From positions 1 to 32,428 of IMG/VR virus record IMGVR_UViG_2690316184_000005: DNA of 32,428 nt, one strand, 5' to 3'. The position numbers and the translations under genes are program-made. This document shows positions 1,855 to 24,876 of this stretch, piece by piece (the stretch's first letter is position 1; each line of letters begins with the position of its first letter). The stretch is from a virus. Lineage: Duplodnaviria; Heunggongvirae; Uroviricota; Caudoviricetes. The notes below the pieces were generated by a model. The model was not told the DNA's origin and did no database searches. It saw nothing but the letters and a program-made list of their open reading frames with translations.

Positions 1855-3921
1855 TTATCGATAGAAAACAGTTTTCAGTCCTGTGTTAGTCCCAACAGAG
1901 GTAATCCCTCTGTAAAGGCCGACATTACTGTTGGTTGTGCTATCAACCCTAACGATTCCATCAATGTTATTTATAAGTGAATTTGTGGTTTGTACAGCGT
2001 TGACAGCATAAGATTTACTTTGTGCTGATATATTTGATGCAACTAAAGTACCAGTTGTCATTGATACACCAACGCTTGACGAACCACTCTCAAAAACTGA
2101 ATTTTTAACAATAGCTTTTGCAACCCCACCAGAAATGTTTATATCTGCTCCGTTAAATGCCTGACTGATTCTCTTGACGTCTGACACGCTGATCAGAGAT
2201 ATACGTCCACCTGATAATATATCAAAGAAGAATGAAGACCTTGTGGGATTTGAACTTGATACTGAAATATCACTTAAGTAAACATTACCAATATTAAATC
2301 CGTATCTGATTTCTAACAAAATCGCCCCGTCATAACCTTGCCCATATATGCCATTAATATTTACATACGGTGTTGTGTTATTAACTGCCCGAATTGCGAC
2401 TATGTATCTTGATCCTTCAGAGTGAATGTTATTCGCGTTTACCTGCCCGGAAGTTATCTGTAGACCTGCGCTTAGCTCATAGGTTGCTGTCGTCTTAAGA
2501 TAAACATCACTGATAGTATTGAACCCATCAGATGAATCAACACCATTGCCAATCCTTCCTCGCCCACTAACACCACGAACAACACAGGAACTACCATAAA
2601 CACTAACACAACTATACATAGGGTTAGTTGCTGAGGCGTCATCACAAACCGCAAATACATTTGTTACTGTAACATCATTGGCCTGAACTTTGACTGCTCG
2701 CTTAAGTGCATTGTAAGTATAAACGCCATCAACCTTTATTTTCTTCCCGCTGAGCATATTTGATGATGAGTTGTAAATCTGAATAACAACACCATCAGCA
2801 TCTTCCCAAGGGTTTAGCTTGTAAATCCTTACGTTACTTATAACTCCACTTGATACCTCATCATCATTTGATGGTACTGGATCAAGTGCCGTTCCTACAA
2901 GAATCCCTCGACATGGCCCAATTACATCAACCTGAATACCATTTCCAATGGTGGTAATATTATGTATTGATATGTTATCAACGACAAAATTCAATACAGA
3001 ATTTGCATCTATGAAAATACCATAAGTTAGTTGAGAACCATTACTATCAAAAACATCAACATTCTTAACTACTGGATTAACAGCCCCTGTTTTGATATGA
3101 ACAGGCCTTCTAATTGCCATCATATTGCAGTTAACTTTAATATTGTTAAGCATGCATGAGTTTACTGTTATAAATGATCCTTCATCTCCGATAGCAACAA
3201 TTTCACCATTAATCAAATCTTTCGTAATATTAATGGTGCTGGCTTTAACTGTAGTTCCGTTAAGGTCCACATTCAATCCGTGCGCCATAATAGATTCAAT
3301 TGAATATTTCGCATCAGCACTCGTATCGATATACTGAGATGGCCAAACCAGTGTGTTATGAGGTGAAGAGTATTTATAAGATAGGCCATTCCTTGTTAAA
3401 TATAACTGTGATGCTGATACCGAAAACCCATCGGCAAGACCTGTAATTCCCGGAGCATATTCGTAAATCTCACCTGAGGATGTGGTGATTTTAAAACCAA
3501 CATTTGGATCTGAATCCATGGCACCATGTAATGCCCCATTTACTAAATTAACCCCACCAACACCATCTAACTCCTGTCTTAGTTGGTCAGGGTCATACTT
3601 CAGCACATTAGGAAAATAGAACTGCTGCGCACCATACGCATCATATACAGCCATAGAATGGCCTTGCACAGTTACGAACTTGGCAATCTGCCCGTTATAT
3701 ACCGGGTAACCAGCAGCGTTAATGATGATTGGTTGCGAAACAGGAATGTGAGAACCGTCTTCGTTTTCCACATAAACCTGAATCTGGTTTTCAGGATTTA
3801 CCGGATCAGTGTCAATTTTACCGATATAAATTTTGCCATTGGCAACCGCTTTAAAAGAACGCGCCATAGTGAAGAGTTGCGAAGGCATGCTTACCACAAC
3901 ATTTGCGGTGATATCTGACAT
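1855..3921 (-). CDS. Tailspike protein: P22 gp9-type N-terminal head-binding domain fused to a divergent C-terminal receptor-binding/enzymatic domain
   Basis: N-terminus '[58 protein letters not shown]...[14 protein letters not shown]' matches my recollection of the P22 tailspike N-terminal domain; the rest does not resemble the P22 endorhamnosidase. Start at ATG 3921 (GGAG upstream), not track start 3969. Confidence 0.9.
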
Positions 3922-4042
3922 TTCATTGCTCCAGACGAATGATATGATGCAACCATGATGTGATTGCATACAGAAATGGTACTATTGAGTATTTATCCAG
4001 TAGGTTACGATGCCATTCCACCCAACTGGTGAGGCATCAAGG

Positions 4043-4309
4043 ATGTACAGCAAATACGACGAGGCGCAGTTTCACTTGAGACTTCCGCATGAACTCCACG
4101 CGAAAATTAAGCAGCGTGCGAAGATGAATAACAGATCGCTGAACTCAGAGATAATTGCAGCGATTGAAGAATCATTGGATAAACAAAACTCTGCATCTGT
4201 TTACATTGACGATGCAGAGCGTATGGCAGAACAACAATCTGAGATGGTTAAGAAAATTGTCTTTGATACGCTTAAGACCATGTATAGCAATAATAAAAAG
4301 GAAACATAG
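4043..4309 (+). CDS. mnt: Mnt-like ribbon-helix-helix repressor (Arc/MetJ fold)
   Basis: 'FHLRLPHELHAKIKQRAKMNNRSLNSEIIAAIEESL...DDAERMAEQQSEMVKKIVFDTLK' parallels P22 Mnt ('FNFRMPMEVREKLKFRAEANGRSMNSELLQIVQDAL...NDAERLADEQSELVKKMVFDTLK' as recalled). Start chosen at ATG 4043 (GGTGAGG RBS 8 nt upstream); track start 4010 also possible. Confidence 0.7.
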   Translation: MYSKYDEAQFHLRLPHELHAKIKQRAKMNNRSLNSEIIAAIEESLDKQNSASVYIDDAERMAEQQSEMVKKIVFDTLKTMYSNNKKET

Positions 4310-4379
4310 AAATCTAGTTTCCGGCTAAAATGGCATTTCCTTCATGATATCCTGTGAAAAACTAAGGAGAGTTAGCCAT

Positions 4380-4865
4380 ATGAAAAAATCACTGTTAATT
4401 ATCCCGCTTCTGCTGGTTGGATGCGCAAAAGTAAGTGACTATCAAGCAAGTTGCGAACAACGCTATCAAAAGCTTAGCGATATGGCTAATTGCCTTGATA
4501 CCAGTGTGAAGAACGACTCACGCATGGCATCAGCACCAACACCTAAGCTGTATGTCCTTGCTGCAAAGATGCTCGGGCAAGGTGTCGATGAAGGCAAGAT
4601 AAGTGACGCACAGGCAAGACTTGAGCTTCAGAATCTTTATGTTCAATTACAAAGCCAAGAACAAGCCCAACAAATAGCACAAAGCCAAGCATTCCAGCAG
4701 GCTTTATTGAATTATCAGGCTGTAAACACAATGCAAGCGATCGAGCAAAAAGCGCGCCAGCCTGTTATAACTCAACCTTACCCAACACGCGTTGACACAT
4801 ATACAAACTGCAATTCAGGATTTGGAAACACGGTAACATGCAACAGTAGCAGTAACATCAGATAA
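4380..4865 (+). CDS. Predicted lipoprotein with Gln-rich coiled-coil-like region; function unknown (candidate superinfection-exclusion/moron protein)
   Basis: Signal peptide plus lipobox 'MKKSLLIIPLLLVGC'; AAGGAGA RBS 9 nt upstream of ATG 4380; same strand and immediately downstream of mnt. Confidence 0.65.
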   Translation: MKKSLLIIPLLLVGCAKVSDYQASCEQRYQKLSDMANCLDTSVKNDSRMASAPTPKLYVLAAKMLGQGVDEGKISDAQARLELQNLYVQLQSQEQAQQIAQSQAFQQALLNYQAVNTMQAIEQKARQPVITQPYPTRVDTYTNCNSGFGNTVTCNSSSNIR

Positions 4866-4955
4866 CAATCAGCAAAGGTATCGCCTATGCAGAGGGATAC
4901 GATAAACCTCGCGTTCTACATATTTGGTTTTTGCACGTTCCTGGTGTTTGAAAGG

Positions 4956-7235
4956 CTATTCTGACAACGAATCAGACTTCGCACCCTGCGTCAGTGCATT
5001 AATCGCTTTTTGCGCTTGCTGCATGGCTTTCTCAAACGCTGTCGATCCGCGTGGGGTGTTTGCCATTCGGAGCATTGCATTTCTGAATGGCTCGCTCTCA
5101 TAGGCGCGAGTAAGAAGTCCGTAGCTTACTGCTGCGCCAGTTGTCGCCGGGTTCATTGCCGTCCCATATCCGATAATGAACGGGATGGTTTGCTGCCCTG
5201 TTGGTGTTGTTACTGCCGCTTTTGCTGCCTGCTGAGTGGACTGAAGGTAGTTTTTCAATCCTTTCAGATAAGCGGCTTCCTGACCTTTAAATGTGATGCC
5301 AGTCTGGTTTTGCAGGATGTTAAGCTGTCGAAGGAACTGGTCAGGGGAACCACCTGATTTCTCCATCGCCTTTCCAATGATGCCATTGCGCATTTGCGCC
5401 CTGCCAACACGACCAACTGAGTTATACAGCGTCTTAATTTCCGATTTGTTCTTGCTGAATAGCATGTTGTTGACAACTTCCGGCGTCAGGTCGCCTTTCA
5501 TGAGAACATTCTTCAGCCTGGTATTCTTTAGTTTCGCCGCTTCGTCAGCGTAGACGGCATTGGCCTGCTGATATTTACGGAGAGTATCGTTGCCAAGATT
5601 CTGACCAATGGCACCATTGATATCGTCTGTCATCGCCTTGTAAACGCGCTGAATGGCGGCATCGGAACGGTTTGGTAACACTGGTCGCTCACCCTTCACG
5701 TCCATTCTGAACTGGCTGCGCAGATCGCTTAATTGCTTCAAATCCAGATTTACCGGACCATCAGGACCAGCATTGCGAACAAGCTCATCACGATAGGACT
5801 GAAGTTTTGAAATAGTCTCGTTATCGGCGACCTTACCAAGCTTCTGCAGGTTAGATATTTCTGTATCAATCTGCTGAATTGCTCGAGCAGGCTGGATATT
5901 GACTCCCGCCATTGCATTCTGAACCTGCTCAAGACGGTTCCCTGCAGCACGACGAATTCCTGATGTTTTCGCTTTAAGGCTGTCAATAACAACAGCTGGA
6001 TCATACTCACCGAATTTATCAGCAAATCTCTGCACCAACTGGCTTCTCGCTTCCTGTTGCGTTGCTCTCATCCCGCTTGTGCCAGCCAGGGGGATATTTT
6101 CCGCTGTCGTCTGCGCCATTTTCCCGACGCGGGAAGTAGGCTGTAACAGGTCTGTGGTGTGCAGAGGAACTCCTTCACGCTCTGCAAATCTGATAGCCTG
6201 CTGCGCTTCTGGCGCAATAGCACCACGAACGCCACGATAAGCAGCACCTAATCCACGTCCGGCAGCGTTAATAGCACCGCCAGCCAGCACACCAACGCCT
6301 AAATCGGTGGCGAGGGCTTCCGCATCATCTTTCGCACTATTTGCAGCAAGTGATCCAACTGCGTTTTCTGCGAGAAGTCGTGTTGCACCCTGAGCAATTC
6401 GACCAGCAAGTGTTGGTGCCTGTACCGCCGCTCTCTCAACGCCAGCAGGAGTGAGGTAAGGCAATGCTTCAGCAAACACCCTGCCCTCTGTCGTTTGTGG
6501 AGTCAGCGCGCCTTGCTGAAGGCCAAAGTCCTGCTCTAATCCCTGCGTTGTTACTCGTGGCGCTGGTTGATATGTACCATCGCCAATGCCGAGTTTACCG
6601 CCAGCCCATGCAGCCGCACTTGTTACAGCATCGGCAACTGATGCAGGTATGTTTGCCACGTTCACGCCAGCCTGCACCAGTCCGCGACCAGTTTCAGCCG
6701 CGGCATTGCCAAGGTCGGAAATGAAACCTCCTTGCTGCTGTGGCGCTGCCTGTGTACTTTGCTGTACAGGCTGTTGTGTAGCTTGATTCTTCCTAGGGAG
6801 GTATTCATCAGCTTGCTGGTTGTGCAGACTCTCCGCATATGCAGTGGCATCGTCAGGATTGTCGAACATACCAAGATGCTTTCCCGTCCTCATGAAGTTA
6901 TCAATAGCTTCATCATCAGACATAATGCGACCATCATCACTAACGGTAGGAATCAGCACCTCTCTACCATCTATATTGGTAGACATGCTCCGCACAGTGC
7001 TAATGCTGCCATCAGAGTTTTTAACAACAGGCCGATTGTGAATGTCAATATTACCCTTCTCTAGCAGACCTCTAGGGTAAGCAGAGTAAAACGCTTGTTT
7101 TGCCTGCTCTGCATTTTCTCCGGCTTGCGGGGCCACGACTTCATTGAAGTATTGTTCCTGAGCCTGCGCTTTTTGTTCTGGTGCTAACGCCTGATACTGT
7201 GGAGAAGCGATAACATCTTTCCATGCTTTAGCCAT
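4956..7235 (-). CDS. Ejection (internal virion) protein, gp16 position of P22-like phages
   Basis: Synteny: last gene of the gp14-gp7-gp20-gp16 block; start overlaps upstream stop (TAATG); 759 aa with Ala/Gln-rich low-complexity stretches. Confidence 0.65.
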   Translation of the reverse strand: MAKAWKDVIASPQYQALAPEQKAQAQEQYFNEVVAPQAGENAEQAKQAFYSAYPRGLLEKGNIDIHNRPVVKNSDGSISTVRSMSTNIDGREVLIPTVSDDGRIMSDDEAIDNFMRTGKHLGMFDNPDDATAYAESLHNQQADEYLPRKNQATQQPVQQSTQAAPQQQGGFISDLGNAAAETGRGLVQAGVNVANIPASVADAVTSAAAWAGGKLGIGDGTYQPAPRVTTQGLEQDFGLQQGALTPQTTEGRVFAEALPYLTPAGVERAAVQAPTLAGRIAQGATRLLAENAVGSLAANSAKDDAEALATDLGVGVLAGGAINAAGRGLGAAYRGVRGAIAPEAQQAIRFAEREGVPLHTTDLLQPTSRVGKMAQTTAENIPLAGTSGMRATQQEARSQLVQRFADKFGEYDPAVVIDSLKAKTSGIRRAAGNRLEQVQNAMAGVNIQPARAIQQIDTEISNLQKLGKVADNETISKLQSYRDELVRNAGPDGPVNLDLKQLSDLRSQFRMDVKGERPVLPNRSDAAIQRVYKAMTDDINGAIGQNLGNDTLRKYQQANAVYADEAAKLKNTRLKNVLMKGDLTPEVVNNMLFSKNKSEIKTLYNSVGRVGRAQMRNGIIGKAMEKSGGSPDQFLRQLNILQNQTGITFKGQEAAYLKGLKNYLQSTQQAAKAAVTTPTGQQTIPFIIGYGTAMNPATTGAAVSYGLLTRAYESEPFRNAMLRMANTPRGSTAFEKAMQQAQKAINALTQGAKSDSLSE

Positions 7236-9750: not shown

Positions 9751-10451
9751 CAGTCAATCAGCCCATGTAATCTAAGTGCCGTTTCAAGCGCCAGAATACG
9801 CTGCCGCGCCTGCTGCAAACCTGTAGCGAGAGCTGCGACTTCGGATTGTGTGTACGTAGTGCCGACAGTGTATGACTGGTTAGCGTTGAATGAGCCAAGA
9901 AGTGGTGTGCCTGTGGCTGCAGTCCATCCGGTCTGCCTTGCTCCAACGACCTGAATTCCATCAACTGAATATGATGTTTTTACATCCAGCGGTGACGCAA
10001 GAGACTGCGATTCGGTTACGGTTTTCGATACGTAATCACTCTTAATGTCAGATACATCGCTTTCTACGCCATCCAGTCTTTGGTCAACAGTGACCAGATG
10101 CGCCTGAATATCGATAACCTCATCCAGCAAGTAATCAACATCGCTACGCAGTACGACTATCTTCCCTTCGACGGTTGTTAACCTGACCTCAAGGAGATTT
10201 ATCGCTTTTGTGTTTGCGGTGATTCTTGCGTCGTGATCTGCCAGTTCGACGTCCTGCTCATCGTTCCTGACTTGTGCGTCATAAGCGCCCTGTCCGGCCT
10301 CGTTGGCCTTGTTAGCCACGTTGCCAACATCAGTACCCTGTGCGATAACGTACAGCAGATATGACTGCGAGAAGATATTGCGTGGAAGGATTGATGTATC
10401 GAGCCGCGTCGCCTGAACAATAACAGGTGTATTGAGATTCGAATCAGCCAT
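9750..10451 (-). CDS. Tail needle protein (P22 gp26-like trimeric coiled-coil fibre)
   Basis: '[43 protein letters not shown]...[24 protein letters not shown]' matches recalled gp26 N-terminus; 233 aa. Confidence 0.85.
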
Positions 10452-11869
10452 TACTCAATCCTTATCTGGCAGCCAGACAGAGTGACAGGTGACTTCGTGA
10501 TAACACGCAATTTGAAGCCGACATTTTTCCTGATGCGCCCAACTCGCTTCCACAAAACGCGTTTGTCGTAAACGAACGGTTCATTCTGCTCAATCATCTG
10601 CTCACGCCCGTAATTGATGCCGTCAGTGGTTGCAGAGAGAAAAAGGCGGTCGGCGTACTGCGCAACGCCAGTTGACGATTCAACCTCAAGGTCGAACACT
10701 CTGGCGTTATCCGCTTTGAAGAGTGGAGTAAACAGCAGGTGTTCCTGTTGCTTGTCGTACTGGCTGCTGATGTCGAATTGCAATTTCCCGATCACCGATT
10801 CCAGCTTATCGCCGCACGTTATCTGATTGCCTTCGTAAATGAAGTCGATAGCGCGGTACACATCGTCATACAGGCCTGTTTTCAGCACACACCATTGCGG
10901 ACCATTGGCGCTTGAAGATGCGTCGTACACGAGAACATGGCGTGGAAGGTGGATAATCAGCAACTCATGAGCATCAAATCTCAGAGACTCCATCACGCCA
11001 TCAGCCAGTTCATCAGCAGTGTAGGAGCGGAGTATTTTCTCAATGCTCGAGCTGGCGATTGGTGACACCTGACCGGAGCCGATGATGTATACAGACGGCG
11101 CACCTGTTGCCGGATTGCTGATGAACGCATAGGAATCAGCAAACGGCGTTTTACAGTAGGTTCCTGCAATACCTTTCTGCACCATCAGCGATGGCTGTGC
11201 AACATACAAAGCGGCACCAACGGTGGTTGCGCCAGTAAGGGAGAAATATTCAATAGTCGATGAACCAAAGCAGACGATGAAGTCTCGCCATGTGCCGATG
11301 CCGATGATGCCGTCAGGCTGCGATTCTGCGCGATATTGTGCGCTGTATCGGTCAGGATGTGATTCGTCTTCAAGGTCAGTGATAAACCATGAATCAGTGC
11401 CGTCTTTTGACCACGCATAACGCCCACGTAAGCGCGTAATGTCGCGTACTGAGCCTAACTCATACTGCGTGAATCCGCTGTCTGTAGGCCAGTTTGAGAC
11501 GGTTTTAACCGTGCCATCATAGCGATACTCGACCAGTTGACCATTAACGCCTACCGCCTGTGATGTCCGACCATGCGCCATTGATACGCGACCACTTCCG
11601 GCAACATCACCGACTTCACTTTCGCCTTTGTACAGCTTGCCACCACACACGCGATAAACAGCATTCTGCGCCATGTTGTACTCGACGCCACGCGATACGC
11701 CGTTCACATCAGAACGTTTGGCAATGCCCGGGAATGAGCGAAGATATCCGCTGCTGTTAAGGATTTCTTTGGGTGTAGCCAACATATTCACTGGCAGATA
11801 GTCGATATAGTCGGCGTTTCGAAAGTCTTTGCCGACACCTTTCATAAGCGGAAGTTGCTGAATCGGCAT
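10451..11869 (-). CDS. Tail hub / tail accessory protein (P22 gp10-like)
   Basis: 472 aa, same size as P22 gp10; synteny between gp4 and gp26. Confidence 0.8.
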
Positions 11870-12370
11870 TTATTCGCTCCCGTTATCGCAAGGTTCCTTC
11901 CGGTGGAAGTAATTCCAACCGTTCCACTTCGCCAACTGGTTACCGCTACCAACAGGCATACGGTTTGGATAACCGGACTTACATTTAGCGGCTTTTGCCC
12001 TATCCATTGCAGACAGTTTGACGAGTCGCTCTTTACCGTATCTGGCAGTGGTTATAAGTTTTGCAGACGCTTCCAGCGCATAATCTGGAGCAATGCGGCA
12101 GGCAAGGTTGAAAATGACGGCATTGATAGCGTTATTTGATAAACCGTGCTCATCGCCCGGATCCGGAGCGACATCTGCATCAGCAAAAATGTAGCCAACG
12201 TTGATACCAGGTGACACATCACCGCCAAGCCATTCAGCCATCATCATTTCAAGGTCGTTGACGCCGTCTTCCATAGACTGCGGTTCGACATCGGTTAACG
12301 TGGCATTTGATGCAACACCGAGCTTACGTAATGCCGCAAGGACTAAATCACCCTTCGTTGTCAGGTTCAT
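11870..12370 (-). CDS. Portal-binding tail adaptor protein (P22 gp4-like)
   Basis: '[43 protein letters not shown]...[15 protein letters not shown]...[11 protein letters not shown]' matches recalled gp4; start taken at ATG 12370 ([10 protein letters not shown]) rather than track start 12442. Confidence 0.8.
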
Positions 12371-20053: not shown

Positions 20054-20347
20054 ATCAACCTCGTCTAGTTGTTCGTCATAGATTCAGTGGCTGGCGGTGA
20101 CGATTCCGCTTTTCGGGAGCTACCCTAGCCACTGTTTTATTCTATCCGATGTCTTTCCATCAGTCCGCCACCACAAAGAATCTTTTTTGCCATAAGGCAG
20201 GAGGTTCATCTTTCAGTGGCTGCCAGTGTTATTTCCCCACTTACTGGCTTGGGTTGTTTCGCGGTACTGCCGTAACTGGTTGCCCAGAATAAATTCCGGT
20301 TTCATTATCAAGCCCACCCGTAGATAGGCTTTGTAATGACTACATGG

Positions 20348-23867: not shown

Positions 23868-24154
23868 GACTTAATCTTCCCCTCCTTCAGCAGTATCGCC
23901 TGCGTCCTGATCACGCCTTCGAGGTGGTAAAGTCTGGCGTCTTTGTTGTCGAGATTATGTGTGCGTCGGTCGATTTCATCGTGACACGCGCTACAAGCCC
24001 ATGCGCCGATCAGGTCGTCAGGCTTCATTCCCGTTCCGCAAATTCCAGCCATCCGGTAATGTGCCAGAACTGTAGTTTCAGGGTTGCCATTGCATACGCC
24101 GTAAATACGTACCTGACATTCTCTTCCGCGCGCTTCTTTGCGTAGGTTAGCCAT
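23864..24154 (-). CDS. DUF1364-family nin-region protein (E. coli YbcO-like)
   Basis: 96 aa 'MANLRKEARGRECQVRIYGVCNGNPETTVLAHYRMAGICGTGMKPDDLIGAWACSACHDEIDRRTH' resembles YbcO as recalled. Confidence 0.7.
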   Translation of the reverse strand: MANLRKEARGRECQVRIYGVCNGNPETTVLAHYRMAGICGTGMKPDDLIGAWACSACHDEIDRRTHNLDNKDARLYHLEGVIRTQAILLKEGKIKS

Positions 24155-24876
24155 TAAGCAGCCTCCCCTGTTACTTTCAGCATTCCGTTATCGAGCAACT
24201 TTCTGGTCAGCCACTGTTGACCGCGCCCGGTGATTTTTGTGGTGAACGATATCTGTATTCCGTGATTTGTGTTGACCGCTGTTTCTTTCACTGTGAAATA
24301 GCCGCGATCCATATATTCCTGCATTGGCACATTGCGCCGGGAACCTGAAGCAATAAGGATTTTGTGATCACGCATCCACGCAAACAGTTTGTTTTGACCA
24401 ATACCAACAACCTTTGCAAAGTTTCCAATCAAAATTCCGCTGGCCTCGCCAACGCGATCGGCAAACTCAACTTTAGGTGCGACAATTGCGAGCTGGTTTT
24501 CCAGTTGCATTTTCTGCTCAGCAAGATCGGCAGCAAGGCGCAACGCTTCCGGTAGCGTTTTGGGGATATTAACCGCAGCTTCTTCAAGCTCTCGCCAGCG
24601 GTCAACAAGGCGAGCGGTGAACTCTGGCGACAACTGGGCAACAACGACAATACTGTCTCGCTTACCTTGTTCGCCCTCGAAGACGTAATGCTCGTACTGA
24701 ACATTGAACCCTAAGTTATTGATTCTTTCGGAAACCTCAATTTGAGGAAGCCGGATAACACCATTTTTAGCCAGCGTTTCGATGGTACGTTTCACATTGT
24801 CATGACGCTTACCCACCAACTCAGCGATTTCAATGCTTGTCATTTTGATGGCATTGCCATTTATTAACTCATTCAT
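24154..24876 (-). CDS. Rha-family regulatory protein with C-terminal KilA-C/antirepressor (ANT) domain
   Basis: N-terminal 'MTSIEIAELVGKRHDNVKRTIETL' (Rha-type) and C-terminal 'TLPEALRLAADLAEQKMQLENQLAIVAPKVEFADRV...' typical of KilAC antirepressor domains. Confidence 0.7.
   Translation of the reverse strand: MNELINGNAIKMTSIEIAELVGKRHDNVKRTIETLAKNGVIRLPQIEVSERINNLGFNVQYEHYVFEGEQGKRDSIVVVAQLSPEFTARLVDRWRELEEAAVNIPKTLPEALRLAADLAEQKMQLENQLAIVAPKVEFADRVGEASGILIGNFAKVVGIGQNKLFAWMRDHKILIASGSRRNVPMQEYMDRGYFTVKETAVNTNHGIQISFTTKITGRGQQWLTRKLLDNGMLKVTGEAA

Follow-up and report, generated by a model that had tools for sequence, protein, structure and literature searches.

A lone mnt gene divergent from the tailspike gene in a P22-like prophage of Escherichia coli, and its predicted operator

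Background

In phage P22, Mnt made by the prophage silences ant on superinfecting genomes, an established role of this repressor in maintaining lysogeny. The immI region is summarised in PMC11016777, the interval between genes 16 and 9 has been named the "ant moron" (Villafane 2008, PMC2629481), and ant morons that hold only mnt are published for phages ST64T, ST104, L and SE1 (PMC2629481, PMC8022706). For phage L, both readings of a lone mnt, a new function or a decaying immI, are already in print (Zaworski 2020, PMC8022706). The specificity of Arc and Mnt is known to be set by their N-terminal residues (work of Knight and Sauer from 1989, cited in PMC3413123).

Here we consider a stretch of 32,428 nucleotides (the window; IMG/VR record IMGVR_UViG_2690316184_000005) in which an earlier note, made from the sequence alone, had described an orphan Mnt-like repressor, either repurposed, for example for control of the tailspike or of a lipoprotein, or left over from a decaying immI.

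Results

Locus and gene order

The window derives from a P22-like (Lederbergvirus) prophage of E. coli, and its positions 3500-4900 are 100% identical to the chromosome of E. coli KD602. The tailspike gene closes the late operon; it begins on the minus strand at 3921 (product beginning MSDITANVV), and mnt begins on the plus strand at 4043, so that the two diverge over 121 bp as had been described (Table 1). The ejection-protein genes of the late operon lie on the minus strand past the lipoprotein gene. The ant moron interval is bounded here by the gene 16 homologue and the tailspike gene, and the order gene 16 homologue, lipoprotein gene, mnt, tailspike is that of an mnt-only ant moron.

Table 1. 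Features of the window at and around mnt (positions counted from the first nucleotide of the window)
Feature	Position	Strand	Details
intS	1-1158	+
Hexapeptide O-acetyltransferase gene	1249-1854	+
Tailspike gene	1855-3921	-	P22-type head-binding N-terminal domain; Pfam Head_binding 1e-66, PHROG tail spike families
mnt-tailspike intergenic region	3922-4042		121 bp, genes divergent
Tailspike-leader dyad ATGCAACCA/TGATTGCAT	3947-3969	-	repeat search; weak fold z-scores
Candidate Mnt operator O1, ATACAGAAATGGTAC	3968-3982	+	register of P22 Omnt, conservation
Pmnt homologue	3985-4011	+	-35 TTGAGT 3985-3990, 15-nt spacer, -10 TACGAT 4006-4011
Nested dyad GATGCC...GGCATC enclosing CACC-CAACT-GGTG	4009-4038	+	repeat search
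mnt	4043-4309	+	88 aa; Pfam and PDB matches, purifying selection
Hairpin GGAAAC-N11-GTTTCC, overlapping the mnt stop codon	4300-4322	-	sequence and RNAfold
Lipoprotein gene	4380-4865	+	lipobox LLVGC, phrog_6067
Gene 16 homologue (DNA transfer/ejection protein)	4956-7235	-

On the other side of the tailspike gene, intS and the O-acetyltransferase gene (1-1854) directly adjoin it. In the KD602 prophage (L005; intS and O-acetyltransferase segment at 10198-11925) the argW tRNA lies on the 5' side of intS, and a second integrase with a TorI-like excisionase is found at the far (PL) end (39795-41188); either two integrases flank one P22-like prophage, or the prophage is a composite with a CPS-53-like remnant. 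A match to the int-alpA sRNA family (Rfam RF02996, 42 bits, above the gathering score) lies at 20073-20135 on the minus strand, with the small-terminase region on one side and the lysis genes on the other.

The Mnt protein

The claim that an Mnt homologue is encoded here was borne out. The 88-aa product carries an Arc-like ribbon-helix-helix domain (Pfam PF03869, Arc, 2.2e-14) and the Mnt-specific C-terminal domain (PF11423, Repressor_Mnt, 8.2e-14, residues 57-81); its best solved relative is P22 Mnt (PDB 1MNT, 8.4e-19 over residues 6-78), to which it is 47% identical, and it matches the Mnt tetramerisation domain (PDB 1QEY) at 4.2e-7. The C-terminal coiled-coil tetramerisation domain, the feature that sets Mnt apart from Arc, is therefore present, and these matches show the product to be, by homology, a member of the Mnt repressor family (ribbon-helix-helix, Arc/MetJ superfamily). 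In the KD602 segment, which is identical, this 267-nt ORF is also the one annotated by PGAP. Between its start and the in-frame ATG at 4010, which the Sf101 record uses, relatives show 1-nt indels or a stop codon; for these two reasons the upstream ATG was rejected and the start at 4043 preferred. Genes of this module are currently labelled, as a rule, only "Arc family DNA-binding protein", or are misnamed "partition protein ATPase".

The predicted operator and its specificity class

We aligned the upstream regions of mnt from P22, phage L, phage 720R6 and the window class. A single register is common to all: the dyad comes first and is followed by TATTG(A/T)G, which is the -35 in P22 Pmnt; a spacer leads to a TAnnAT -10, and a short leader separates this from the start codon. 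This upstream homology to P22 Omnt and Pmnt shows the mnt modules to have a common ancestry. O1 immediately precedes TATTG, as do P22 Omnt (AGGTCCAC-C-GTGGACCT) and the palindromes of phages L and 720R6 (AGACCAC-N-GTGGTCT).

Among 229 related loci, over which the variants were tallied, O1 is conserved in about 220, with the consensus rTACC-nAAAy-GGTAC. It occurs most often as ATACCGAAATGGTAC, and in some Buttiauxella/Serratia-like loci the arms match perfectly over 5 bp; the window copy has one C-to-A mismatch in the left arm, at position 3972, a minority variant found in 8 of the 229. In 68 of 71 loci, TACC-N5-GGTA precedes the mnt start by 71-80 nt; elsewhere it occurs only at chance level, and within the window 3968-3982 is the sole close match.

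The operator half-sites differ together with the residues of the recognition strand. The P22 class combines H-F-N-F-R with GTCC, the L/720R6 class Q-F-N-L-R with GACC and the window class Q-F-H-L-R (Q9-F-H11-L-R13) with TACC, that is, H-N-R, Q-N-R and Q-H-R respectively. By its recognition strand the window Mnt belongs to a distinct specificity class, and O1 is likely to be its operator. Homology and conservation agree in placing the predicted operator just upstream of the -35 of mnt's own promoter, on short arms.

To the left of O1, several unrelated sequence classes are found, and the stretch from O1 to mnt stays conserved. The mosaic breakpoint thus lies directly left of O1, between O1 and the tailspike leader, as would be expected if a functional mnt module had its outer boundary at the dyad.

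A scan of IMG/VR for the exact O1 motif gave 126 occurrences on 120 stretches, 52 of them beside a window-class mnt. The remaining 74 are scattered chance matches in unrelated contexts, and no Mnt-like gene was found on the motif-bearing IMG/VR stretches that have no window-class mnt. In one unrelated phage group of IMG/VR (L261, L266, L292, L303, L327 and L343), the exact 16-mer CATACCGAAACGGTAC directly follows a TATATA box, in a promoter-like unit that is duplicated tandemly 515 bp apart upstream of small acidic ORFs. No Mnt-like gene was found in the fetched stretches, and we took these units for a coincidence.

Promoters

A simple sigma-70 weight matrix, which recovers P22 Pant at 17.2 bits and P22 Pmnt at 14.8 bits, found Pmnt in register in all types (12.2 bits in 720R6, 11.0 in phage L, 9.7 in VSe13, L007 and L010). 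The window copy scores 8.7 bits because its spacer of 15 nt is 2 bp shorter, and the mnt transcript would start near 4018. A consensus scan also gave an alternative upstream promoter at 3915-3943, which would flip the sign of the regulation.

Pant was found for P22 alone. The earlier note had suggested that Mnt might control tailspike expression; no conserved promoter toward the tailspike was detected, by the weight matrix in any mnt-only type or by the consensus scan, and the mosaic breakpoint parts the operator from the tailspike leader. Leftward candidates score 5.6-9.1 bits across types against 17.2 for P22 Pant, the best in the window being ATGGCA-17-AATACT (7.4 bits), whose transcript would start inside O1. 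Phage L keeps a crippled Pant vestige, TCGGCA-17-TATATC, the equivalent of which is unrecognisable in the window. A leftward tailspike promoter was rejected on this lack of conservation across types.

Other dyads and hairpins

A CACC-N5-GGTG dyad, reported earlier near the 5' end of the gene, does exist as CACC-CAACT-GGTG at 4019-4031, but it lies 12 nt upstream of the start codon and outside the gene. With arms of 4 bp, about 0.4 such dyads are expected per 121 bp at the exact spacing and about 2.6 with spacers of 3-8 nt, so that it is not above chance on its own. In relatives with the same recognition strand (Buttiauxella, Serratia, Citrobacter) its spacing differs by one base, GTCC-N6-GGAC stands in its place, or it is missing, which speaks against it as the operator of the family; as the position homologous to Omnt is that of O1, we rejected it in this role. 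A second site with the ACC-N5-GGT core of O1 is conceivable here, though not one conserved family-wide.

The dyad that encloses it (4009-4038) has conserved stems and variable loop positions. It may form a stem-loop where the mnt mRNA begins, or these may be merely the conserved flanks formed by the -10 and the ribosome site. Two-sided covariation was not found in this segment, which is not above shuffles and has a fold z of -1.6, and on these grounds the RNA hairpin was rejected; its one-sided changes would keep the pairing through G.U only on the plus strand, a hint that does not reach significance.

The dyad at 3947-3969, which is part of the tailspike-leader module and not of the mnt module, may form a hairpin on the late strand, about 25 nt ahead of the Shine-Dalgarno sequence of the tailspike gene. 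At the same place L006 carries compensatory ATTCAAT/ATTGAAT. More generally, a late-strand hairpin stands about 20-45 nt upstream of the tailspike start in every leader type (window, L006, L003, L007, L172 and L004), in unrelated sequences. The "boundary sequence" of P22 and L, GCCGUAGCCAYGCUGCGGC, can form only on the late strand, since it depends on a G.U pair; a strong leader-hairpin z-score was obtained for phage L only (-3.9).

At the end of mnt, the hairpin at 4300-4322 is followed by the T-run TTTTTATTATT on the minus strand only. Its plus strand has no U-tract, so that mnt transcripts can read on. Missed by the consensus scan, the hairpin is a possible weak terminator for the late direction, which late transcription in its antiterminated state would then have to get past.

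Missing immI genes and the antirepressor operons of relatives

The observation that no arc or ant lies between mnt and the tailspike stands: the 121-bp gap contains no ORF, hence no divergent arc, and tblastn queries with P22 Arc and P22 Ant had no match in the 32-kb window. Neither sar nor any other Rfam family matched at E <= 1 in 3700-5000, and arc-ant, the target of sar, is absent from the window. The P22-type set of arc, a Mnt-controlled ant, a Pant overlapped by the operator, and sar is thus without a counterpart in the window. Nor was an arc or ant with a Mnt operator found elsewhere in these 32 kb. The sole ANT-domain ORF (24154-24876, minus strand, 240 aa, Rha plus ANT/KilAC; phrog_63, 9e-100) lies within the nin operon, where its start overlaps the end of the ORF before it. 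It has no Mnt-type operator nearby and was rejected as a Mnt-controlled antirepressor.

In about 66 related loci a complete antirepressor operon lies 3' of the tailspike-proximal mnt and converges with it (for example L009 from Citrobacter, L010 from Serratia, and L100 and L105 from IMG/VR). These operons contain an Arc-like gene, a Bro-N/P22_AR_C antirepressor, a Rha-like gene and a Mnt-like or LexA-like repressor of their own, and no copy of O1 was found near the ant promoter in these two-repressor loci. The loci fetched (IMG/VR, metagenomes, species genomes) included no case of arc or ant between a window-class mnt and the tailspike, and no cognate complete immI for the TACC operator class. 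The loss of arc and ant from between these two genes that the earlier note implied is not supported by this layout, in which ant operons, when present, lie 3' of mnt. In VSe13, the 97-aa "antirepressor" is the C-terminal stub of the Rha-like gene, which shows one route of deletion: in that lineage at least, mnt came to stand alone through loss of sequence on its 3' side.

The window class of mnt lies 121-137 bp from the tailspike start in essentially every locus with context, in Escherichia, Salmonella, Citrobacter and Buttiauxella. In L008 (3330-3869) and about six IMG/VR or metagenome loci with gaps of 660-728 bp, an HNH/AP2-type homing endonuclease gene sits between tailspike and mnt, and a duplicated stub of the old tailspike start is found beside the intact O1-mnt module, which looks like the footprint of tailspike swapping.

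Conservation and selection

The 229 loci with full context, drawn from IMG/VR, metagenomes and species-representative genomes, have an intact mnt ORF in 226 cases (98.7%). For 63 distinct E. coli-type alleles, pS is 0.122 and pN 0.016, with a dN/dS of 0.12 (0.095 in the DNA-binding domain). Over 56 haplotypes, pi is 0.019 in the 121 intergenic bp, against 0.083 at mnt third codon positions and 0.051 in the first 60 nt of the tailspike, and positions 3974-4002 are invariant. Where an ant operon is also present, the tailspike-proximal mnt is intact in 66 of 66 loci, with a dN/dS of 0.13. Decay of an immI region, one of the two options raised beforehand, is at odds with an ORF this often intact, this dN/dS and an upstream region more conserved than synonymous sites; by these measures the lone mnt is shown to be kept by selection and not to be decaying, which answers, for this class, a published question.

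One of the only three disrupted copies is in Citrobacter (L009, 4001-4255): codon 5 of the mnt next to the tailspike is a stop, and the right arm of O1 carries a mismatch; this locus also has a complete second antirepressor operon. The module is carried by 276 of 5426 complete E. coli genomes.

Lipoprotein and other cargo genes

About half of the loci carrying a window-class mnt have the lipoprotein gene. Since the 70-bp gap between mnt and this gene has no plus-strand terminator and no good promoter, the two are probably co-transcribed, and the P22 annotation, which places the mnt terminator after orf59a, offers a precedent for mnt with a cargo gene. The suggestion that Mnt controls lipoprotein expression is plausible in this form. 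In mnt-only ant morons the cargo genes are repeatedly small, mutually unrelated lipoproteins, namely the phrog_6067 member of the window, protein 15 in 720R6 and orf62 in phage L (L002, 3137-3556; L172, 1761-2054); they are candidates for surface or exclusion functions.

Discussion

A proposed self-regulating module

With moderate confidence, we propose that this is an autoregulated Mnt module expressed from the prophage, in which mnt and the lipoprotein gene would probably form one transcript. O1, the Pmnt homologue, the short leader and mnt would together make a self-contained unit under selective maintenance. Mnt, made from the prophage and assembled into a tetramer through its C-terminal helix, would bind O1 where it abuts the -35 of its own promoter and set its own level and, through co-transcription, probably also that of the lipoprotein. 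The antirepressor promoter that Omnt controls in P22 no longer exists in the window, and with this Pant-type promoter lost the tailspike would be expressed only by read-through of the late operon. Several points weaken this proposal: the arms of O1 are only 4-5 bp and the window copy has a mismatch, the Pmnt score is modest and its spacer 15 nt, the alternative upstream promoter would flip the sign of the regulation, and self-regulation alone leaves the purifying selection on Mnt unexplained. Mnt may also benefit the lysogen. The lipoprotein gene is not a general reason for keeping mnt, because it is absent from about half of the loci, as in Sf101.

Other explanations

The distance of 121-137 bp from the tailspike start, found in four genera, and the intact mnt (66 of 66, dN/dS 0.13) even where a separate repressor governs the ant operon, would also suit a Mnt that controls the tailspike from O1, either by repressing a weak leftward promoter derived from Pant or as a roadblock gating read-through from the late operon (in relatives, the ant operon). 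P22 Pant transcripts reach gene 9, and an effect of Mnt and Arc on tailspike read-through has been suggested (PMC2629481); the Pant vestige of phage L and the window candidate starting inside O1 fit as well. We nevertheless judge this control unlikely, as leftward promoters are not conserved (5.6-9.1 bits against 17.2), the breakpoint falls between O1 and a tailspike leader that exists in at least four unrelated forms, HNH-gene insertions part mnt from the tailspike in some loci with no loss of mnt, and P22 deleted for mnt-ant still yields viable phage (PMC11016777). A related idea, to which we give little credence, is that the tailspike-proximal Q-H-R Mnt is a separate, dedicated regulator of the mnt-tailspike junction and not an immI leftover, which might gate late or ant-operon read-through into the tailspike on resident or superinfecting genomes with the same O1.

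Selection on a repressor with no local target would be accounted for if the lone Mnt were a trans-acting immunity factor against relatives whose antirepressor promoter has an O1-type operator. Such a role would match that established for P22 Mnt in the maintenance of lysogeny, and the diversification of operator and recognition strand into classes is what immunity specificities would be expected to show. It is made quite improbable by the roughly 230 mnt loci, in which no O1-type site was found beside any arc or ant, by the 74 of 126 exact motifs in unrelated contexts, with no Mnt-like gene on stretches that have no window-class mnt, and by the ant operons beside this mnt class, which have other operators and their own repressors. 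Finally, the module might be a functionless relic of a degraded immI, hitch-hiking between two anchors, the end of gene 16 and the tailspike head-binding domain, an option raised in print for phage L (PMC8022706). The loss of Pant, arc and ant, the 15-nt Pmnt spacer and mismatched O1 of the window, and the 3 disrupted copies of 229, including that with a stop at codon 5 (L009), could be read in this way, but a dN/dS of 0.12-0.13 with many synonymous changes, 98.7% of copies intact, and a non-coding operator and promoter stretch that is invariant while third codon positions vary make a relic very unlikely.

The three pairings of half-site (GTCC, GACC, TACC) with recognition-strand variant form a small natural data set on DNA recognition by a beta-sheet, and the analysis supplies for the window class a concrete, testable prediction of operator, promoter and recognition residues. 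The importance of the locus is modest; the module is present in about 5% of complete E. coli genomes and poorly annotated.

Comparison with known phages

Compared with immI of P22, the window has a homologous Mnt with both domains, located likewise between genes 16 and 9 and oriented in the same way with respect to the tailspike gene, and its upstream register is that of Omnt and Pmnt, but Pant, arc, ant and sar are absent. The window has the half-site TACC and the residues Q/H/R where P22 has GTCC and H/N/R, and its Pmnt spacer is 15 nt.

The ant morons of L, ST64T, ST104 and SE1 resemble the window: mnt and the tailspike gene are direct, divergent neighbours (separated by 135 bp in L and SE1), arc and ant are absent, the palindrome and Pmnt are kept, and one or two small genes, often a lipoprotein gene, lie alongside. 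These L-type morons belong to the Q-N-R / AGACCAC-N-GTGGTCT class and have a P22-like tailspike leader, unlike the window with Q-H-R / TACC-N5-GGTA and a different leader containing an ATGCAAC dyad.

Direct adjacency of mnt and tailspike is also seen in Sf101, IME10, 720R6, Gally, VSe13, L and SE1. The Mnt proteins of Shigella phage Sf101 and coliphage IME10 are 93-95% identical to that of the window, and the nucleotide match from the 5' end of the tailspike gene across the 121 bp to mnt is 96-97% identical. O1 there has the consensus form ATACCGAAATGGTAC, unlike the window, and Sf101 differs further in having no lipoprotein gene, mnt being directly followed by the gene 16 homologue. The mnt gene of these two phages is either left unannotated or called a "partition protein ATPase", and it receives no discussion in the Sf101 paper.

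The two-repressor ant morons (Citrobacter L009, Serratia L010 and many IMG/VR prophages) have the same mnt class with O1 adjoining the tailspike, except L010, whose upstream stretch has no tailspike match, and CUS-3 has more than one mnt. Unlike all of these, the window has neither such an antirepressor operon nor the repressor that goes with it. The reduced, mnt-only layout is thus already known, and the copy in the window is a further member of it, of its own specificity class and largely ordinary.
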